NCBI GenBank assembly: GCA_963804165.1
Contig: CAWDPO010000041.1
Coordinates: 32,001-96,000, forward strand
DNA from: an uncultured delta proteobacterium
GTDB taxonomy: Bacteria; Desulfobacterota; Binatia; UBA9968
DNA length: 64,000 bases
Reading direction: 5' to 3'
Shown: in pieces, positions 3,336-29,323 of the stretch
How positions within the stretch are numbered: position 1 is the stretch's first letter
Layout: each line of letters begins with the position of its first letter
Translations under genes and position numbers: made by a program
Notes under the pieces: model-generated
Seen by the model: the letters and a program-made list of their open reading frames with translations, nothing else
What the model was told of the DNA's origin: nothing
Databases searched by the model: none

Positions 3336-5651
3336 CTAGGCGGCGCTCTTTTTCTTGCTCTTTTGCAGCGCCCAAAAAACGTTTTCGGGCTTGAGCGGCA
3401 GGTCGTAAACGCGCACTCCAATGGCATCGGCGACCGCATTGCCGATGGCAGCGGGTGTCGGCGCGAGTCCGGGTTCGCCGAGACCTTTGGCCCCGTACGG
3501 TCCTTCGGGCTCGGCGCACTCGACGATGATCGGGATCATCTTCGGCACGTCCAATGATGTAACCAGGTGATAATCGAGGAACGAGGGGTTGCGCACCTTG
3601 CCGGTGTTGTCGATGATCATTTCCTCGTGCAGCGCGGAACCGATGCCCATGGCGACGCCACCTTCGATCTGCGCGACGCAATTGAGCGGGTTGATCGCCT
3701 TGCCGACATCATGGGCCGCGGACATGCGTAGCAAGCGTACCCGGCCGCTTTCTTCATCGACCATCACTTCGGCGGCCTGCGTGGCGTACATATAAAACGC
3801 CGAGGCGTGATCGCTGTGGCCGGTCTCCAGATCCAAGTCCTTGCCGATCTCATAGGTGTAGGATGCGTCGCCGCGCACGATGCCATTGATGCCGAGTTTT
3901 CGCTTTACAACTTCGCCGATGGGCAGCGCCTGCTGCGGCTGGTCTTTGAGAAATACTTTACCTTCGGCGTAATCGAGGTCTTGCGCCTTGGCTTCGAGCA
4001 TCGGGCTTGCCGCTTCCATGATCTGCTCGCGCGCATGAATCGCCGCGCGGCGCACGGCGTTGCCCATATGATAGGTGCTGCGGCTCGAGGTGGTGGAAGC
4101 GTCGTAGGGTATGACATCGGTGTCGAGCTGGTGCATGTGGACCTTGTCCATCGGCACCTTGAGCTCTTCTGCAGCGACTTGGGAGAGAATGGTGTTGCAA
4201 CCCTGGCCGATCTCCACGGTTCCGGCGAGCACGGTCACTTCTCCTTGCGCGTTGACGGTGACGCCGGCGTTGGAAGTGGTCGGTGAGCGGGTCGGCTTCT
4301 GGATGCAGGCGAAGCCTTTGCCGATTTTCACTCCCGGCTTGGTTGGCTGCGCCGGCTTGCCCCAGTCGATCGCTTCCGTCGCCTTGACGAGCGTTTCTTT
4401 GAGCCCCACGGCGTGAAGCTGCTCGCCCCAGTAAGAGATATCGCCCTCGACGAAGATATTCTTCATGCGAATGTCGAGCGCATCCATGCCGAGCTTTTTG
4501 GCGATCTCGTCCAACTGCTGTTCGCCGGCCCATGCGCCCTGCGGAATACCGTAGCCGCGATAGGAACCGGCGACGGGTTTGTTGGTGTAAACGGCATAGC
4601 CATCGACTTTGACATGTGGAATGCGATACGGCCCCGGCGCCGGCAGGCTGCCGCGGATGCAAACCGTCGGGCTTTTTTCGGCGTAGGCGCCGGCGCCCCA
4701 GTAAATCGTCATCTCGCGCGCTACCAAGGTGCCGTCTTTTTTCACGCCGGTTTTTGAGTAGACCACCGCCTCGTGGCGGGTCAAGGTTGAGATGAAAGTT
4801 TCCTCGCGGTTGAACTTTACGCGCACGGGCCGGCCGTTGGTATGGAAAGCCAGCGCGACCGCGATCGGTTCGACTTTCAAGCCGCCTTTGGAGCCGAAGC
4901 CGCCGCCCTGCGCCGGATTGATGAAGCGAATCTTATCCTTGGTCATGTTCAAGGCTTCGGTGATCTCATGCAGCGCGCGAAACGGCGCGTCGTTGGCGAC
5001 CCAAAGCGTCAAGCGGCCGCTCTCCTTGTCCCATTGAGCATGGGCCGAGTGCGGTTCCATGGCGGCGTGCTGAATCATCGGCACGAAATATTTTTCTTCG
5101 AGAACGAGGTCGGATTCTTTGAAGCCTTTCGAGACATCGCCGGTACGTAGCTTGAAATGCTCGGCGATGTTGGCGTGCGGTCCCGGCACGATGAAATCGA
5201 CTTTGCGATATTTGGGAAAATCCTCGTGAATCGCGATCGCCCCCGGTTTAGCGGCTTCCTCCGGGTCGGTGTAGACTGGCAGATCTTCGTACTCGACTTC
5301 GATGAGCTTCACCGCTGCTTGCGCGATATCTTCATCTTCCGCCGCTACCGCCGCTACGGGTTCTCCGATATAGCGCACTTTGCCTTGAGCGAGAAAAGGT
5401 TTGTCTTTAATCGATTCGCCGTGCGTCCAAGGCGCGTCTTCGCCGGTCACCACAGCGACGACGCCGGGCAACTGCTTGGCTTTCTCCGTGTTGATTTTTT
5501 TGATCTTGGCATGGGCCTTGGTGCTAAATAGCGTCTTGCCATAGAGCATATTGGGCAACACGAGGTCATAGCCATAGACAATTTGCCCGGTAACTTTCTC
5601 GTTGGCATCGACCCGGGTGACTGGTTTTCCGACGACTGTGAGTTCGGACAT
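3336..5651 (-). CDS. Xanthine dehydrogenase family molybdopterin-binding (large) subunit
   Basis: GGGFGSK, YRGYG, QIEGG and GAKGLGE motifs; 771 aa; in operon with 2Fe-2S and FAD subunits. Confidence 0.93.
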   Translation of the reverse strand: MSELTVVGKPVTRVDANEKVTGQIVYGYDLVLPNMLYGKTLFSTKAHAKIKKINTEKAKQLPGVVAVVTGEDAPWTHGESIKDKPFLAQGKVRYIGEPVAAVAAEDEDIAQAAVKLIEVEYEDLPVYTDPEEAAKPGAIAIHEDFPKYRKVDFIVPGPHANIAEHFKLRTGDVSKGFKESDLVLEEKYFVPMIQHAAMEPHSAHAQWDKESGRLTLWVANDAPFRALHEITEALNMTKDKIRFINPAQGGGFGSKGGLKVEPIAVALAFHTNGRPVRVKFNREETFISTLTRHEAVVYSKTGVKKDGTLVAREMTIYWGAGAYAEKSPTVCIRGSLPAPGPYRIPHVKVDGYAVYTNKPVAGSYRGYGIPQGAWAGEQQLDEIAKKLGMDALDIRMKNIFVEGDISYWGEQLHAVGLKETLVKATEAIDWGKPAQPTKPGVKIGKGFACIQKPTRSPTTSNAGVTVNAQGEVTVLAGTVEIGQGCNTILSQVAAEELKVPMDKVHMHQLDTDVIPYDASTTSSRSTYHMGNAVRRAAIHAREQIMEAASPMLEAKAQDLDYAEGKVFLKDQPQQALPIGEVVKRKLGINGIVRGDASYTYEIGKDLDLETGHSDHASAFYMYATQAAEVMVDEESGRVRLLRMSAAHDVGKAINPLNCVAQIEGGVAMGIGSALHEEMIIDNTGKVRNPSFLDYHLVTSLDVPKMIPIIVECAEPEGPYGAKGLGEPGLAPTPAAIGNAVADAIGVRVYDLPLKPENVFWALQKSKKKSAA

Positions 5652-24868: not shown

Positions 24869-25657
24869 ATGATCGAGCTTTATCACAACGATATGTCGGT
24901 TTGCGCGCAGAAGGTGCGATTCGCCTTGGCGGAAAAGAAGCTTTCCTGGGAGGGGCACCATCTAAATCTTCGCGCCGGCGATCAGCAGAAGCCGGAATAT
25001 TTAAAACTTAATCCCAACGCGGTGGTGCCGACTTTGGTGGACGATGGGAACGTTATTATCGAGTCTACGGTGATCTGCGAATATCTCGACGATACCTATC
25101 CTGAGCCAAAGCTTAAACCCGCCGATGCGCTGGGGCGGGCGCGCATGCGCTTATGGACCAAGCAGCTCGACGAAGGCGTGCACGCGGCAACCAGCGTCGT
25201 CAGCTCGGCCATCGCGTTTCGCTATCAGAAGCTCGCTATCGGCATGGAAGCGCTCGAAGAGTTTCACGAGAAGATGCCCGACCCGGTGAAGCGGGAAAAA
25301 AGCTGGGAGAATGTCACCAAGGGCGTCGAATCGCGTTTCTTTCCCGAGGCGATCAAGCGCTTCGACAGGCTGCTCGCGGACATGGAAGTGTCGTTGACAG
25401 ACTCGCCGTGGCTTGCCGGCCGGGAATTTTCCCTCGCGGATATTGGCTACGCTCCGTACATCACTCGGCTCGATCATCTGCAGTTGCAGTTTCTCTGGGA
25501 CAAGCGGCCCCATATCCCCGATTGGTACGACCGCTTGCGTGAACGCCGTGCTTACAACGAGGCGCTGGAAAAATGGTTCAACGCGAATTACCTGCCGCTA
25601 ATGAAAGAAAAGGGTCTCGAAGTTCGCGACAAAATCAAAGCGATTGTGGCGGGATAA
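24869..25657 (+). CDS. Glutathione S-transferase family protein
   Basis: MSVCAQKVR, LNPNAVVPTL, ESTVICEYLD, WLAG..FSLADI motifs. Confidence 0.92.
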   Translation: MIELYHNDMSVCAQKVRFALAEKKLSWEGHHLNLRAGDQQKPEYLKLNPNAVVPTLVDDGNVIIESTVICEYLDDTYPEPKLKPADALGRARMRLWTKQLDEGVHAATSVVSSAIAFRYQKLAIGMEALEEFHEKMPDPVKREKSWENVTKGVESRFFPEAIKRFDRLLADMEVSLTDSPWLAGREFSLADIGYAPYITRLDHLQLQFLWDKRPHIPDWYDRLRERRAYNEALEKWFNANYLPLMKEKGLEVRDKIKAIVAG

Positions 25658-25914
25658 CTCTGTCTGATTCCCGAGAGGTGAAATACGGAAAGCGCCAATT
25701 TGGACGCTTTGGGCAGAGTTCGTGCGATGGCGCGAGCGCAGTGGATGCTCTAACTCTGTCCTCAACAAACCGCAATACTCTCCATTGCCCACCCTCAGCG
25801 TCCGTTTTGCCAGCGTCATCAACTGCAACACTCGCCACGCCGGTCAGAATCAAATATTTGCGCGGCCTGGTCAAATACGGCGGTTGGTTTCCTGGTGCGG
25901 AAAAGCGAAGCGGC

Positions 25915-25977
25915 GGCTAACGTTTCGTTAACGCGCGCGCCGTTCGCGGCGCGTCGGTGTTGAACGCTGGGTTGGGC
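25915..25977 (-). mobile_element. Integron attC site (63 bp)
   Basis: Minus strand GCCCAAC-ccagc-GTTCAAC-accga-CGCGCCG-cgaa-CGGCGCG-cgc-GTTAAC-gaaac-GTTAGCC: RYYYAAC and GTTRRRY boxes, 5-nt spacers, L boxes with one extrahelical base, 9 bp after a stop codon. Confidence 0.88.
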
Positions 25978-25986
25978 GTCATTGTG

Positions 25987-26439
25987 TCAGCGGGCTACGG
26001 CCGCCTCAGCAATACCTGCCAGCGCCTTGCGTAAGTTCCCGATGACGGCGCACTGCGTAACCCCATGGCGTTGCCCCAGGAATTCGGGATCGTTGTAGCC
26101 GAGCCAAACTTGGGACGATGCGTCCTCCCACACCAGGGCCTTGAGCGGAAGATCGATTCCCACAGTCTGCGCGCACTCCATGAAGGGCGTGCCGCCTTGC
26201 GGGTTGCCAAAGATGATGACCTCGGTTGGCCGCAGAGTCATGCCGACTTTTGCTGCACCCGCCGCGTGATCGATCCGCGCAAACACGTTCAGCCCACGTT
26301 GTTTGACCAGATCCTCGAGCCGGTTCATCGTGTCCTTAGCACTGTGGGGGCTCTTCACGACGAGCAAGCCATCTGCGGCGCTAGCAAGCGAACTGGCGGC
26401 CAAGCAGGCAACGATTGCAAGGGAGCGAAGCGCATTCAC
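25987..26439 (-). CDS. DUF302-family exported protein (gene cassette ORF)
   Basis: VFARIDH...A...G..LRPT....FGNP..GTP.M.....G.DLPLK.LVW; AAGGAG RBS then GTG 26439; signal peptide. Confidence 0.9.
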   Translation of the reverse strand: MNALRSLAIVACLAASSLASAADGLLVVKSPHSAKDTMNRLEDLVKQRGLNVFARIDHAAGAAKVGMTLRPTEVIIFGNPQGGTPFMECAQTVGIDLPLKALVWEDASSQVWLGYNDPEFLGQRHGVTQCAVIGNLRKALAGIAEAAVAR

Positions 26440-26478
26440 GGGTAAACTCCTTTCGCGTGAGAAGAAGGAGATGAAGAC

Positions 26479-26572
26479 GCCCAACGTATAGCGTTTTATC
26501 CCCTAAAGGTTGGCGGCAATCAAGTTGCTTGATGGCGCTGGAGTATCGCTAAGGGGAAAAAACGTGTTGGAC
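26479..26572 (-). other. att-like recombination junction between the IS91-like element and the DUF302 cassette
   Basis: Minus strand GTCCAAC ... 13-bp inverted repeat (26492-26504 / 26552-26564) ... GTTGGGC; GTTGGGCGTC is the exact complement of GACGCCCAAC at the cassette's attC. Confidence 0.6.
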
Positions 26573-26816
26573 TAAACCGCGGAGCCGCTGAGCAGCTGCG
26601 GCTATGGGGATTGTAACCTGACGCAGTGCGGCTGAGCAGGGCACCGCGTTAGCGATAGTACGGCCAGTGGATGATGGTTGAGATCAGCGCCGGTGGTTTT
26701 TCGCCGATTGCGACACTGCCATGCAACTTCAGAGGCGGTTTTGGGCAGAGCCAAACGCACCCGCGCTAAGTCGGCAGATTGAGAGTCACACCAGCTGAGA
26801 GGCGATGGAGCCTTGC

Positions 26817-27992
26817 TCATGAAGAATCCACACGAGGCGAGATCGAGAACGCCGGTAGGTCGCCGACGACAATCATCCTTCCCTCACCGCAGCACGGGCA
26901 GCGAGAAAGATCGACGCCTGTGATTTTAAGCAGCAGGTCTTTGGCTGAGAGCAAGGGAGGTTGCGGCAAAGCGGGATCGAGATCGAGGAGTTTGCGGCAC
27001 TGAGCGAGCGCTAGTTTTTTGGCGCGGTTAGCCAACAAGCCGAAGTGACGGATGCGCATGAAGCCTTGCGGCAAGACGTGAAGCAAAAAGCGGCGGATAA
27101 ATTCCTGGGCCTCCAGCGTCATGGTCTTTTTGCGATCCCCGTCTCTTCGATCTCGATAACTCAAGGTGACTTCTCCGTCTTGGATCTGGAGAATACGATT
27201 GTTGGACAGCGCCACGCGGTGGGTGTAGCGGCCGAGGTAGTCAAGCACCGTGTGGGGCGAGCCGAAAGGCTTTTTGGTATAGACCCCCCAGTTCTTTTGG
27301 CGTAACTCGTTGATGGCTTCGCTTGGGAAATCGATTTTTCCTCGCACGATGTTGTGTTGTAACAGATCGAGAAACTTTGCTCGGAAAACCAAGCTTAAAG
27401 CTTTAACCGGAAACAGAAAGTTTTTGCGCGCCGAGATCCAGCGATTTTGATCGAAAGACAGAGCACCGGCGGGGACAAGACAGTGCAGATGAAAATGATC
27501 CTTGAGGGTTTGGTCCCAGGTGTGCAGCACGGCAATGATACCGATGGTTCCCTTAAGACGTGTCTGGCCAAACTCCAACAAGGTTTTACTGACAGCTTTA
27601 AACAGAAGACCCAGTACGATCTTCTTGTTGGCAAGGATCAGCCGGTTCAGTTCATGGGGTAAGGTAAAGACCAAATGAAAATATCCCACCGGCAAAAGCT
27701 CAGAGGTTTGCTTCTCCAACCACCGAGCCTTAGCCAAGGCTTGGCACTTGGGACAGTGGCGGTTACGGCAGGAGTTATAAGCCGGACGCTCAAAGCCGCA
27801 AGACTCGCATCGATCCAGATGCCCGCCCAACTCTTGGGTGCGGCAGGCCGAAACGGCCCGCACCACCTTTTGCTCGCAGGCCAATAAACGATGCGTTCGT
27901 TGGTAGCTCTCCCCGTACTGACGAAAAACATCGGCCAGCTCGGGACGCGCCCTTTTTTCTCCTGCCGCCAGCCCAGGGCTGGCCGGCAGCAT
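26817..27992 (-). CDS. IS91-family (Y2 HUH) transposase
   Basis: Zn-binding C..C...YNSCRNRHCPKC, H.VFTLP, HTW......HFHLH (HUH), YLGRY, FIRRFLLHVLP.GF.RIRHFG. Confidence 0.95.
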   Translation of the reverse strand: MLPASPGLAAGEKRARPELADVFRQYGESYQRTHRLLACEQKVVRAVSACRTQELGGHLDRCESCGFERPAYNSCRNRHCPKCQALAKARWLEKQTSELLPVGYFHLVFTLPHELNRLILANKKIVLGLLFKAVSKTLLEFGQTRLKGTIGIIAVLHTWDQTLKDHFHLHCLVPAGALSFDQNRWISARKNFLFPVKALSLVFRAKFLDLLQHNIVRGKIDFPSEAINELRQKNWGVYTKKPFGSPHTVLDYLGRYTHRVALSNNRILQIQDGEVTLSYRDRRDGDRKKTMTLEAQEFIRRFLLHVLPQGFMRIRHFGLLANRAKKLALAQCRKLLDLDPALPQPPLLSAKDLLLKITGVDLSRCPCCGEGRMIVVGDLPAFSISPRVDSS

Positions 27993-28004
27993 GTGGCTAC
28001 CTGG

Positions 28005-28853
28005 CTACAGCGAGTCGTTGCGCGGATCGAGCAAGTCCAACGGACTCGTGGTCGAGCCCAGCTTGGGCTGGCGGATTTGCAGATAGCGCTGGGTACTCTG
28101 AAGCGAGTTATGACCCAACAGCGTCTTAATAGTCACCAGATCCACTCCCGCTTCTAACAGGTGGGTGGCGAAACAGTGACGCAGCGTGTGAATCCCTTTG
28201 CCTTTTTCAATGCCGCTTTTGTGCTTGGCGAGATTGTAGACTTTCTGCGCGGCGGTGATGTGCAGGGGATCATTTCTGGTTTTACCAAAGAAGACCCACA
28301 GCACGGGTTGATAGGCCTGCTTATATTTTCTCAGCTCGCCAAGCAGCCGTTGGGAGAGAATCGTGTAGCGGTCTTTTTTCCCTTTGCCCTGTTCCACTCG
28401 GATCATCATACGCTCGGGATGAATGTCGCTGAGTTTGAGGTGGATTAGCTCAGTGACCCGAAGTCCCGCCGCATAAGCGGTCATCAGTAAACAGCGGTCT
28501 CTGAGCTTGACCGCGGCGCAAAGCAATCGCTCGACTTCCCTGGGGCTCAACACCTCGGGCAACCGCCACGTCCGTTTTCTCGGCGGCAAGAACAGCTGCT
28601 CTTCGTTCCAGCCCAAAACTTGCTGATAGAAAAACCGTAGCCCCGAGATCGCCACGTTCTGGGAATTGGCGGATAAGCCTCGTTTCTGGAGATGCAACAG
28701 ATAGGCGCGGATCTCGTCTTGCGTCAGTTGATCCGGGAATCGATGATAGTACCTGGCCAGCCCCACCATCGCCGCAACGTAGGACTTCTGCGTCCTCGAT
28801 GCGAAATTTCTCAGCTTCATCTCCTCGATCATCTTGTCGCGTAATACTCCCAT
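28005..28853 (-). CDS. Tyrosine recombinase (phage integrase/XerD family)
   Basis: Y..GLR..E, GKG.KDR, HTLRHCFATHLLE.G, LLGH....ST..Y catalytic motifs; SAM-like N-terminus. Confidence 0.95.
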   Translation of the reverse strand: MGVLRDKMIEEMKLRNFASRTQKSYVAAMVGLARYYHRFPDQLTQDEIRAYLLHLQKRGLSANSQNVAISGLRFFYQQVLGWNEEQLFLPPRKRTWRLPEVLSPREVERLLCAAVKLRDRCLLMTAYAAGLRVTELIHLKLSDIHPERMMIRVEQGKGKKDRYTILSQRLLGELRKYKQAYQPVLWVFFGKTRNDPLHITAAQKVYNLAKHKSGIEKGKGIHTLRHCFATHLLEAGVDLVTIKTLLGHNSLQSTQRYLQIRQPKLGSTTSPLDLLDPRNDSL

Positions 28854-29323
28854 AAAAAACCCTCCTTGGATTTAAATTTGGGAGCGACGCTATCACGCGA
28901 ACTGAGAAAACCGGGAGTGGAATTGAACTGTGAAACCTAACGCAGATTTCGAAAGCAGTCTAAAGCAGAAAACTCCGCACGGCATCCCCACCCGCGCAGC
29001 GGTTTAGTTCAACTATTAAGTGAGCTGCCGTAGGCCGCGACAATTACTGGTCGGCTTATCCTCGGCGACGGCTTCGACAACAAAAGTCCAAATTGCCTAC
29101 AATATCCATCAGCTACCGAGTCATGTCAACTCAGCGTTTCCGACAAAAGCCGACCGACGCGGCGGGTTATCTCCCTCTCGATCGGCGGCTTATGCCAGCT
29201 AAAGTTCAGGTGCATCCGTCGGTCCCGCTTGCATGTGCCATTGCGCCTGGATCTCGCCTGCACGGTTTCTCTTGCTCCGCGTCCCGTTTCCGCAGTAGAG
29301 ATTAAAGGAGAAGGGGCCGGACT

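Follow-up and report, generated by a model that had tools for sequence, protein, structure and literature searches.

The 64,000-nucleotide stretch of DNA analysed here (the window; GenBank assembly GCA_963804165.1, contig CAWDPO010000041.1, positions 32,001 to 96,000) comes from an uncultured delta proteobacterium of the Binatia lineage UBA9968 and carries on its minus strand a mobile element with two genes of its own. The assembly, G000 in our numbering of genomes (G), contigs (C) and loci (L), has 46 contigs and is 81% complete. An intact gene for a 282-residue tyrosine recombinase (28005..28853; Pfam Phage_integrase, 4.2e-34, with SAM_4) is followed by an equally intact gene for a 391-residue Y2 HUH transposase of the IS91 family of insertion sequences (IS) (26817..27992). 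Under a model in which the crossover falls at G|TT, the whole element occupies 26485..29012 (2,528 bp) and reads TTGAAC, recombinase, transposase, GTCCAAC, hairpin and CTATACG; these limits were taken from diverged copies in the same genome. It lies between a 180-nt type-1 attI-like module (29014..29193) and a DUF302 gene cassette with an attC-like site (25915..26484), both likewise on the minus strand.

Boundaries of the element

The earlier note on this DNA had picked out, on the minus strand, a GTTGAAC start, GTCCAAC, a hairpin and GTTGGGC, and all four are there, the three motifs at 29013-29007, 26572-26566 and 26485-26479, respectively. The 15-nt inverted repeats that it described are also present, with 14 of the 15 positions matching. 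The left repeat, GTTGAACTAAACCGC (28999..29013), opens with a G (29013) that is common to, or derived from, the target, and pairs with the right repeat, GCGGTTTAGTCCAAC (26566..26580), which holds an R''-like box. At 80% identity the arms can be extended to 25 nt. Further inside the element lies another pair of arms, offset and ending GGGGAT/ATCCCC.

The end points were located by means of the other copies in G000. These comprise a truncated copy on C9 that is 98% identical to the window element, copies at 73-77% identity on C10, C5, C41 (near the contig start) and C37 (partial), and a second subfamily at 65-71% identity on C23 (two copies), C18 and C30. In the alignment of the 73-77% copies similarity starts at GTTGAAC, runs through the hairpin and ends after ...AAAACGCTATACGTT, and the point at which the diverged same-genome copies part lies just after ...CTATACGTT. 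The bases that directly follow the conserved end differ between copies (GGGC, AGAC, AGCT), the paralog 3' junctions reading GTTAGAC and GTTAGCT. Because paralog similarity runs through the hairpin and stops only beyond it, the hairpin is assigned to the element, and the earlier view of it as a spacer in front of the next cassette had to be given up. Of the two ends proposed in that note, the 5' end holds (29013/29012) and the 3' end moves from 26566 to G26485/TT26484-26483. As judged from these alignments, the element spans TT29012 to G26485 and position 26566 marks only the inner inverted repeat. Within the 3' junction core GTTGGGC (26479..26485), G26485 belongs to the element and TTGGGC is the start of the next cassette.

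A family search with an alignment of five G000 recombinases as query, run on contigs of one genome per species, gave 78 loci. Forty of these had enough flank and a recognisable inverted repeat for junction analysis. Both junctions could be assigned automatically in 24 of the 40, the remaining 16 being skipped for a weak hairpin (8), the lack of an NTT-GAAC motif (7) or the lack of a 3' triplet (1). The same element limits recur in these 24 loci of other genomes. A subterminal motif, ATCCCCATAG (26602..26611, minus strand), is also conserved among related loci, and 21 of 64 loci have CCCCATAG 3' of the transposase gene, where about 0.5 would be expected. The motif is kept 20-40 nt inside the right inverted repeat, also in clades whose repeats differ (21 of the 64 related loci), and is a candidate recognition or nick site for the transposase.

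The attC-like hairpin at the 3' end

The hairpin (26486..26565, minus strand) has basal stem arms at 26492-26504 and 26552-26564, a variable loop, and a 6-nt spacer, CTATAC (26486-26491), ahead of G|TT. The region 26470-26600 folds at -24.9 kcal/mol (z = -3.29), and none of 200 shuffles folds as well. The elements have a common layout, with NTT-GAAC-TAAACCGC at the 5' end and, at the 3' end, GCGGTTyAGTyCAAC, 0-4 nt, stem, loop, stem, 4-8 nt and NTT. The sequence of the basal stem differs between clades while its pairing is kept: in a 24-sequence alignment 9 of the 12 pairs changed on both sides (in 42 cells), giving a covariation score of 0.362 against 0.153 for shuffles, none of 500 of which reaches 0.362, and at most 0.142 for slid partners. 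By its fold, its covariation and its place within the paralog alignment, the hairpin is the element's own attC-like site rather than a spacer before the next cassette.

In a circle or tandem array of the window element, ...CTATACG would be joined to TTGAACTAAACC...; the left inverted repeat corresponds to the R' box of such a circular junction. In the resulting R''/R' analogue, GTCCAAC pairs with GTTGAAC at 6 of 7 positions. Canonical attC sites have roughly symmetric spacers, whereas those of the element hairpin are asymmetric (0-4 nt on one side and 4-8 nt on the other) and the canonical pattern of extrahelical bases is not established in it. The element's own site was the sole match of a strict attC pattern scan of the window (0-1 matches per shuffle), which missed the DUF302 attC. 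A relaxed genome-wide scan returned 415 matches against 285 in shuffled DNA, a specificity too low for counts, and was used only for inspecting known neighbourhoods. Rfam gave no match to the window, the hairpin or the upstream module.

Solo 3' stumps of the element occur at two further places in G000 (C17:199338-199473 and C23:264222-264269). They consist of a hairpin or half-hairpin, with or without the inner repeat, and both adjoin GTTAGGC and a downstream gene. At the 3' end of the L030 element its final 23 nt (...GGGATAAAACGCTATACGTT) occur twice in tandem.

The two encoded enzymes and their distribution

The transposase scores 445.6 bits on NF033538 (cut-off 125), matches Pfam Y2_Tnp (2.5e-57) and Zn_Tnp_IS91 (9.1e-32), and carries HLH and YLGRY motifs. 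The recombinase, as indicated by its profile matches, belongs to the Xer/IntI superfamily, and its catalytic RHR-H-Y residues are invariant across five paralogs. Its NCBIfam scores are all under the cut-off, at 178 for XerA, 159 for IntI (TIGR02249, cut-off 265), 158.8 for XerD (329.6) and 153.8 for XerC (335); the genuine IntIs of relatives score 299-480 bits on the IntI model. The match to that model is split (model positions 3-179 and about 237-314), and the additional IntI-specific segment, at about positions 180-236, is absent. In a quick tree, XerC and XerD are split from IntI and the element recombinases with a support of 100. The element recombinases themselves are grouped with a support of just 60 and are not resolved as one clade, so that the relationship of the recombinase to IntI appears only weakly resolved.

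The 78 loci are spread over Binatia, Desulfobacterota, Nitrospirota, Acidobacteriota, Alpha-, Beta- and Gammaproteobacteria, Bacteroidota and others. An IS91 transposase gene lies immediately 3' of the recombinase gene in 75 of them, the exceptions being L062, L069 and L076. The annotated copy of ISAzo26 on a plasmid of Aromatoleum aromaticum EbN1 has the same ends, with GTTGGAC... followed by ...GTCCAAC-hairpin-spacer-ATT, and this places our element in the ISAzo26 subgroup. By its gene pair, gene order and ends, and with a transposase that is an IS91 equivalog, the element is an ISAzo26-type member of the named IS91 subgroup with an upstream tyrosine recombinase. ISShvi3, ISSod25 and ISWz1 also belong to this subgroup. 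ISWz1 reportedly forms circular intermediates in resistance islands (PMC11322121). We found no function for the upstream 'integrase' of database-listed IS91 elements in searchable papers and, ISfinder and TnPedia entries aside, neither an attC-like end nor an integron-core target rule of these elements in the searchable literature.

The target site in the window

The module into whose end the element is inserted contains three ATAAGCCGNC repeats, a promoter consisting of TTGACA (29129-29124), 17 nt and GATATT (29106-29101) that points towards the GTT, a G+C hairpin, and ...CTCACTTAATA before G29013. It belongs to a repeat family with uninterrupted members. In G000 these lie on C15, C24 and C10 and, in shorter form, on C26 and C12; they end ...CTCACTTAATAGTT, with one base changed within the last six letters on C26, C12 and C24, and are followed by unrelated genes. 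Two weaker members on C17 are without the GTT. In relatives the module is found directly 3' of intI: in the same orientation on G021:C75, where IntI is in two pieces (C-terminal piece, 300.5 bits), on G007:C165, where only an IntI fragment is left, and beside an intact IntI on the Binatia contig L027 (462.7 bits). Since it adjoins the 3' ends of genuine intI genes in relatives, we read the 180-nt module as the attI and promoter region of the integrons of this genus.

In these integrons (L137 = G021:C75, L134 = G012:C72, and L027) intI is oriented like the cassettes, and its stop codon is followed, a few tens of bases on, by the start of the attI with its internal promoter. Within G000 the module is dispersed over at least seven places (window 29014-29193; C15:25840-26021; C24:175667-175723; C10:50946-51002; C26:23883-23942; C12:56815-56874; C9:6485-6668), with no intI and with different genes after each copy, and it is multi-copy in relatives too, with at least nine in G018. 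These dispersed modules have the look of orphan attI platforms. Downstream of the one on C15 there are at least two more attC-like sites.

A site without the element, of the kind that the earlier note had proposed to compare, is seen in the sister genome G018. The orthologous site there has the neighbouring monooxygenase gene and the module in common with the window. The module is uninterrupted (...TAATAG|TTAGGC) and leads into a 160-residue cassette with a canonical attC (GCCTAAC ... AAGTT(G)AAGC / GCTTAACTT ... GTTATGC), and synteny with the window resumes at 24869-24918. Because the G018 ortholog has another cassette there, the window copy can be placed in the first-cassette position of a variable cassette region.

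The DUF302 cassette that follows the element in the window starts at G|TTGGGCGT and holds an open reading frame (ORF) at 25987-26484 (Pfam DUF302, 2.8e-22). Its attC-like site (25915-25977, 63 nt; GCCCAAC ... GTTAGCC, with inner boxes CGTT(C)AAC and GTTAACG) opens with the complementary ACGCCCAAC. The attC that the earlier note saw here is borne out in its cassette-like bounds and box pattern; its fold energy is no better than that of shuffles (z = 0.01), and the call therefore rests on the box pattern. No empty DUF302 site was found in relatives, whose DUF302 homologs share only 69-74% identity and have different surroundings.

Insertion sites of other copies

Other copies in G000 lie at comparable sites. 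The C9 copy is in a different type-1 module, just 79% alike to that of the window, the C10 and C37 copies occupy the GTT ends of a second type of module, of which there are also uninterrupted paralogs, and the C5 and C41 copies are at a third module type, which is found 3' of intI in G012 (467.4 bits). The second subfamily (C23, C18) lies within a palindromic ACTGAAC ... (A/G)TTCAGT site. Its two C23 copies (C23:251678-254210 and C23:259569-262101), which are 7.9 kb apart and identical over 2,533 bp, are both flanked by inverted GATTGAACTGAA / TTCAGTTCAATC resembling the element's own repeats.

In other genomes, L027, L053 (IntI 298.7 bits, partial) and L060 (IntI 479.9 bits) have a relative as first cassette next to an IntI gene that scores over the cut-off; in L060 and L053 this gene is divergently transcribed. 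An IntI gene is thus adjacent in 3 of the 78 loci, with a fragment in L039. There (4800-4830) the 5' end of the element adjoins a truncated intI of which only residues of about 102-216 are left, a junction that suggests an adjacent deletion or a one-ended event.

A relative is also present in the class 1 integron of E. coli pM216_AC2, where the order is intI1, aac(6')-IIa, recombinase and IS91 transposase, aadA4, qacEdelta1, sul1 and ISCR1. The relative splits the attC of aac(6')-IIa (first box GCCTAAC), starting at the G|TT of that site, and the complementary GTTAGGC reappears at the 3' junction of the element before aadA4. The setting is clinical, the relative standing between two resistance cassettes on an IncC plasmid of a hospital E. 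coli; as it adjoins resistance cassettes in that integron, this type of element can be counted as part of the mobile context of resistance genes.

As far as their flanking sequences identify them, the targets are integron cores in the window, beside intI in the relatives and in the E. coli class 1 integron. The insertion point is exact at these sites and the orientation is that of a cassette. The earlier suggestion of insertion at GTT att cores, with integron sites as targets, agrees with the attI-type module of the window, with L027, L053 and L060 and with the aac(6')-IIa attC; for the note's further suggestion, that the element captures or moves other cassettes, there is no evidence among our results. 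The 3' flank reads GTTAG in 7 of the 15 GAAC-type loci, and AG also follows the triplet in L027, L060, the E. coli copy and the two stumps. The cores of a Terriglobia clade are GACTT/CTT, which are not integron cores. We also considered a perfect hairpin within 25 nt upstream of the GTT as a general target rule and rejected it, the mean stem of 4.9 bp not differing significantly from the 4.2 and 3.9 bp of controls.

A model for entry into integrons

The junctions fit a crossover between N and TT, the 5' junction being the left part of the target plus TTGAAC and the 3' junction ...CTATACG plus TT and the right part of the target. In 4 of 24 loci (L030, L042, L056 and L064) and in ISAzo26 the triplets at the two junctions do not begin with the same base, so that a 3-bp target duplication is unlikely and an N|TT exchange fits. 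Tandem copies in Saprospiraceae show the joined form directly, as inverted repeat, hairpin, AAAT, GTT and inverted repeat. The array at L058, on a Saprospiraceae chromosome, has four tandem copies with a 2,406-bp period, of which the three compared are 100% identical; just 5' of the first copy lies a C-terminal fragment of another IntI-like recombinase gene, and the arrangement recurs at a second chromosomal site. Such tandem copies are compatible with rolling-circle transposition.

The reading that we lean towards is that of an IS that mimics a cassette and enters integron cores by conservative site-specific recombination, probably by means of its own recombinase. The HUH transposase would make a circular or single-stranded copy of the element, which would fold into an attC-like structure and serve as the substrate. 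The joined ends would form an attC-like site, consisting of the R''-like GTCCAAC, the hairpin, the 6-nt spacer, G|TT and the R'-like GAAC..., and a conservative N|TT crossover, presumably catalysed by the element's recombinase, would join this site to an integron site at the latter's G|TT core. Under such a scheme the target in the window would have been an orphan attI-plus-promoter module just upstream of the DUF302 cassette.

Several observations point to the element's own enzyme. The recombinase gene is linked to the transposase gene in 75 of 78 loci and its product has intact catalytic residues. The Terriglobia GACTT/CTT cores are specific to their clade. G049, a chromosome-level record, has five copies with similar recombinase-gene scores, four of them in tandem with 100% identity among the three compared, and no IntI over the cut-off. 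In G000 the 98%-identical copies stand in two modules that are just 79% alike, and no IntI is found in the assembled 81%.

A number of findings weigh against this reading. The recombinase is without the IntI-specific segment, which in IntI reads the extrahelical bases of attC, and its 159 bits on the IntI profile are barely above the 143 bits of the true XerD of the genome. Of five element-bearing genomes tested, three have an IntI over the cut-off, as do 9 of 31 genomes of the genus (8 of 30 without the unpublished G005), and G000, where none was found, is just 81% complete. None of the 24 loci has a clear 5'-flank box complementary to the 3' core, a one-mismatch box being seen in L080 and L090 only, so that most of these loci cannot be called attC insertions, and the general rule of a hairpin upstream of the GTT was not significant. 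No circular or tandem joint was seen in the assembled contigs of public runs (at most 0.40 of sampled words), which is no evidence either way. A bolder form of the same idea, which we hold to be somewhat unlikely, is that the recombinase is a self-sufficient cassette recombinase with no need of IntI: the HUH protein would peel off a single strand, the ends would fold, and the enzyme would join them to attI or attC. If this were true, the elements could service orphan attI modules and cassettes in genomes without intI, and could be a sister or precursor state of the integron integrase-attC system.

The exact place and orientation of the element, at attI and at the R' of attC, are also those that IntI gives to new cassettes. 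An attC mimic integrated and excised by host IntI in trans would account for them, as it would for the IntI genes adjacent in L027, L053 and L060 and present in three of the five element-bearing genomes, and the element's recombinase could then have another task, such as the resolution of rolling-circle tandem multimers. Xer recombinases resolve multimers at dif or cer, and tandem arrays of the element exist (L058). It is harder to see, on this account, why the recombinase gene should be retained by the element in 75 of 78 loci, why its catalytic residues should be intact, why some clades use CTT/GACTT cores that are foreign to IntI sites, how G049 came by identical copies with no IntI over the cut-off, and why the spacers (0-4 against 4-8 nt) are asymmetric, and we judge it unlikely.

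Ordinary rolling-circle transposition of the IS91 kind, in which the HUH protein alone would pick NTT, the hairpin would be a terIS/oriIS end, the likeness to attC would be convergent and the recombinase an accessory, seems to us quite unlikely. In its favour, the transposase is a full-length equivalog of the IS91 type that carries HUH and Y2 motifs, HUH elements typically have subterminal CCCCATAG motifs and hairpins, and the 3' stumps and the intI truncated at the element 5' end in L039 resemble one-ended events. IS91 elements use a tetranucleotide target without duplication, GTTC or CTTG in classical members. The target here is GTT(AG), not GTTC, with NTT common to both junctions. Against it stand the targets themselves, which are integron crossover points entered in cassette orientation in five independent settings, the joined ends, which reproduce an R''/R' pair, and a linkage to the recombinase that is nearly without exception. 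A third possibility, that an IS later entered the ORF region of an ordinary cassette and that the hairpin is the attC of this old cassette, is very improbable. The unit does start with TTGAAC and end in an attC-like site followed by G|TT, but across phyla, at unrelated sites and in tandem arrays the gene pair is accompanied by the hairpin and both inverted repeats, which contradicts such an origin.

Relationship to other mobile elements

The likeness to integron cassettes extends to both ends, the element starting with the TTRRRY-like TTGAAC and ending in an R'' box, stem, loop, stem, spacer and G, and to its position, at the G|TT of attI or attC, bounded by G|TT cores and in the single orientation of cassettes. 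It differs from them in its length (2.5 kb), its two mobility genes, its own recombinase without the IntI-specific segment, its asymmetric spacers, an inverted repeat longer than the 7-bp boxes and, in some clades, CTT cores. The IS1111-attC group of the IS110 family and the group IIC-attC introns also home to integron recombination sites; their enzymes are a DEDD transposase and a reverse transcriptase, respectively, and they interrupt the attC with no cassette imitation and no restored cassette boundaries. Both are mentioned in PMC9229058. ISCR elements have a related HUH transposase and an association with integrons, and ISCR1 is present in the same E. coli locus; unlike our element, ISCR1 lies beyond the 3' conserved segment and is without a recombinase and without cassette-like ends. 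In integrative mobile elements exploiting Xer (IMEX), a Xer-type tyrosine recombinase integrates conservatively at a short core, dif, whereas our element encodes the recombinase itself and has an integron core as its target.

The results suggest that the extra recombinase gene serves to bring a rolling-circle transposon into integrons in the manner of a cassette. The element would thereby connect HUH transposition with integron attC recombination, both of which work on single-stranded DNA, and offers a testable model for integron-type recombination without the IntI-specific domain, which bears on the origins of integrons. In annotation, the end of the element will pass for an attC with cassette finders, IS finders will go no further than the inverted repeat, and 80 bp of the element will escape both.

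Sequences around the cassette region and other modules

A sequence of roughly 150 nt (25757-25915) directly follows the attC core GTTAGCC of the DUF302 cassette. It is multi-copy in the genus at 74-84% identity and may be an ORF-less cassette or another module. The part of the window from the start of the GST gene to the module (24918-29011) is replaced by about 770 bp in G018 and by about 1.2 kb in G003, the conserved part of the GST gene being its first 50-96 nt only. On C12 of G000 (C12:56012-56698; L019 3012-3698) an IS200-like Y1 transposase gene lies beside a shortened type-1 module, and the module copies of C12 and C26 have in common the palindrome TTGGAC-TAAG-GTCCAA.

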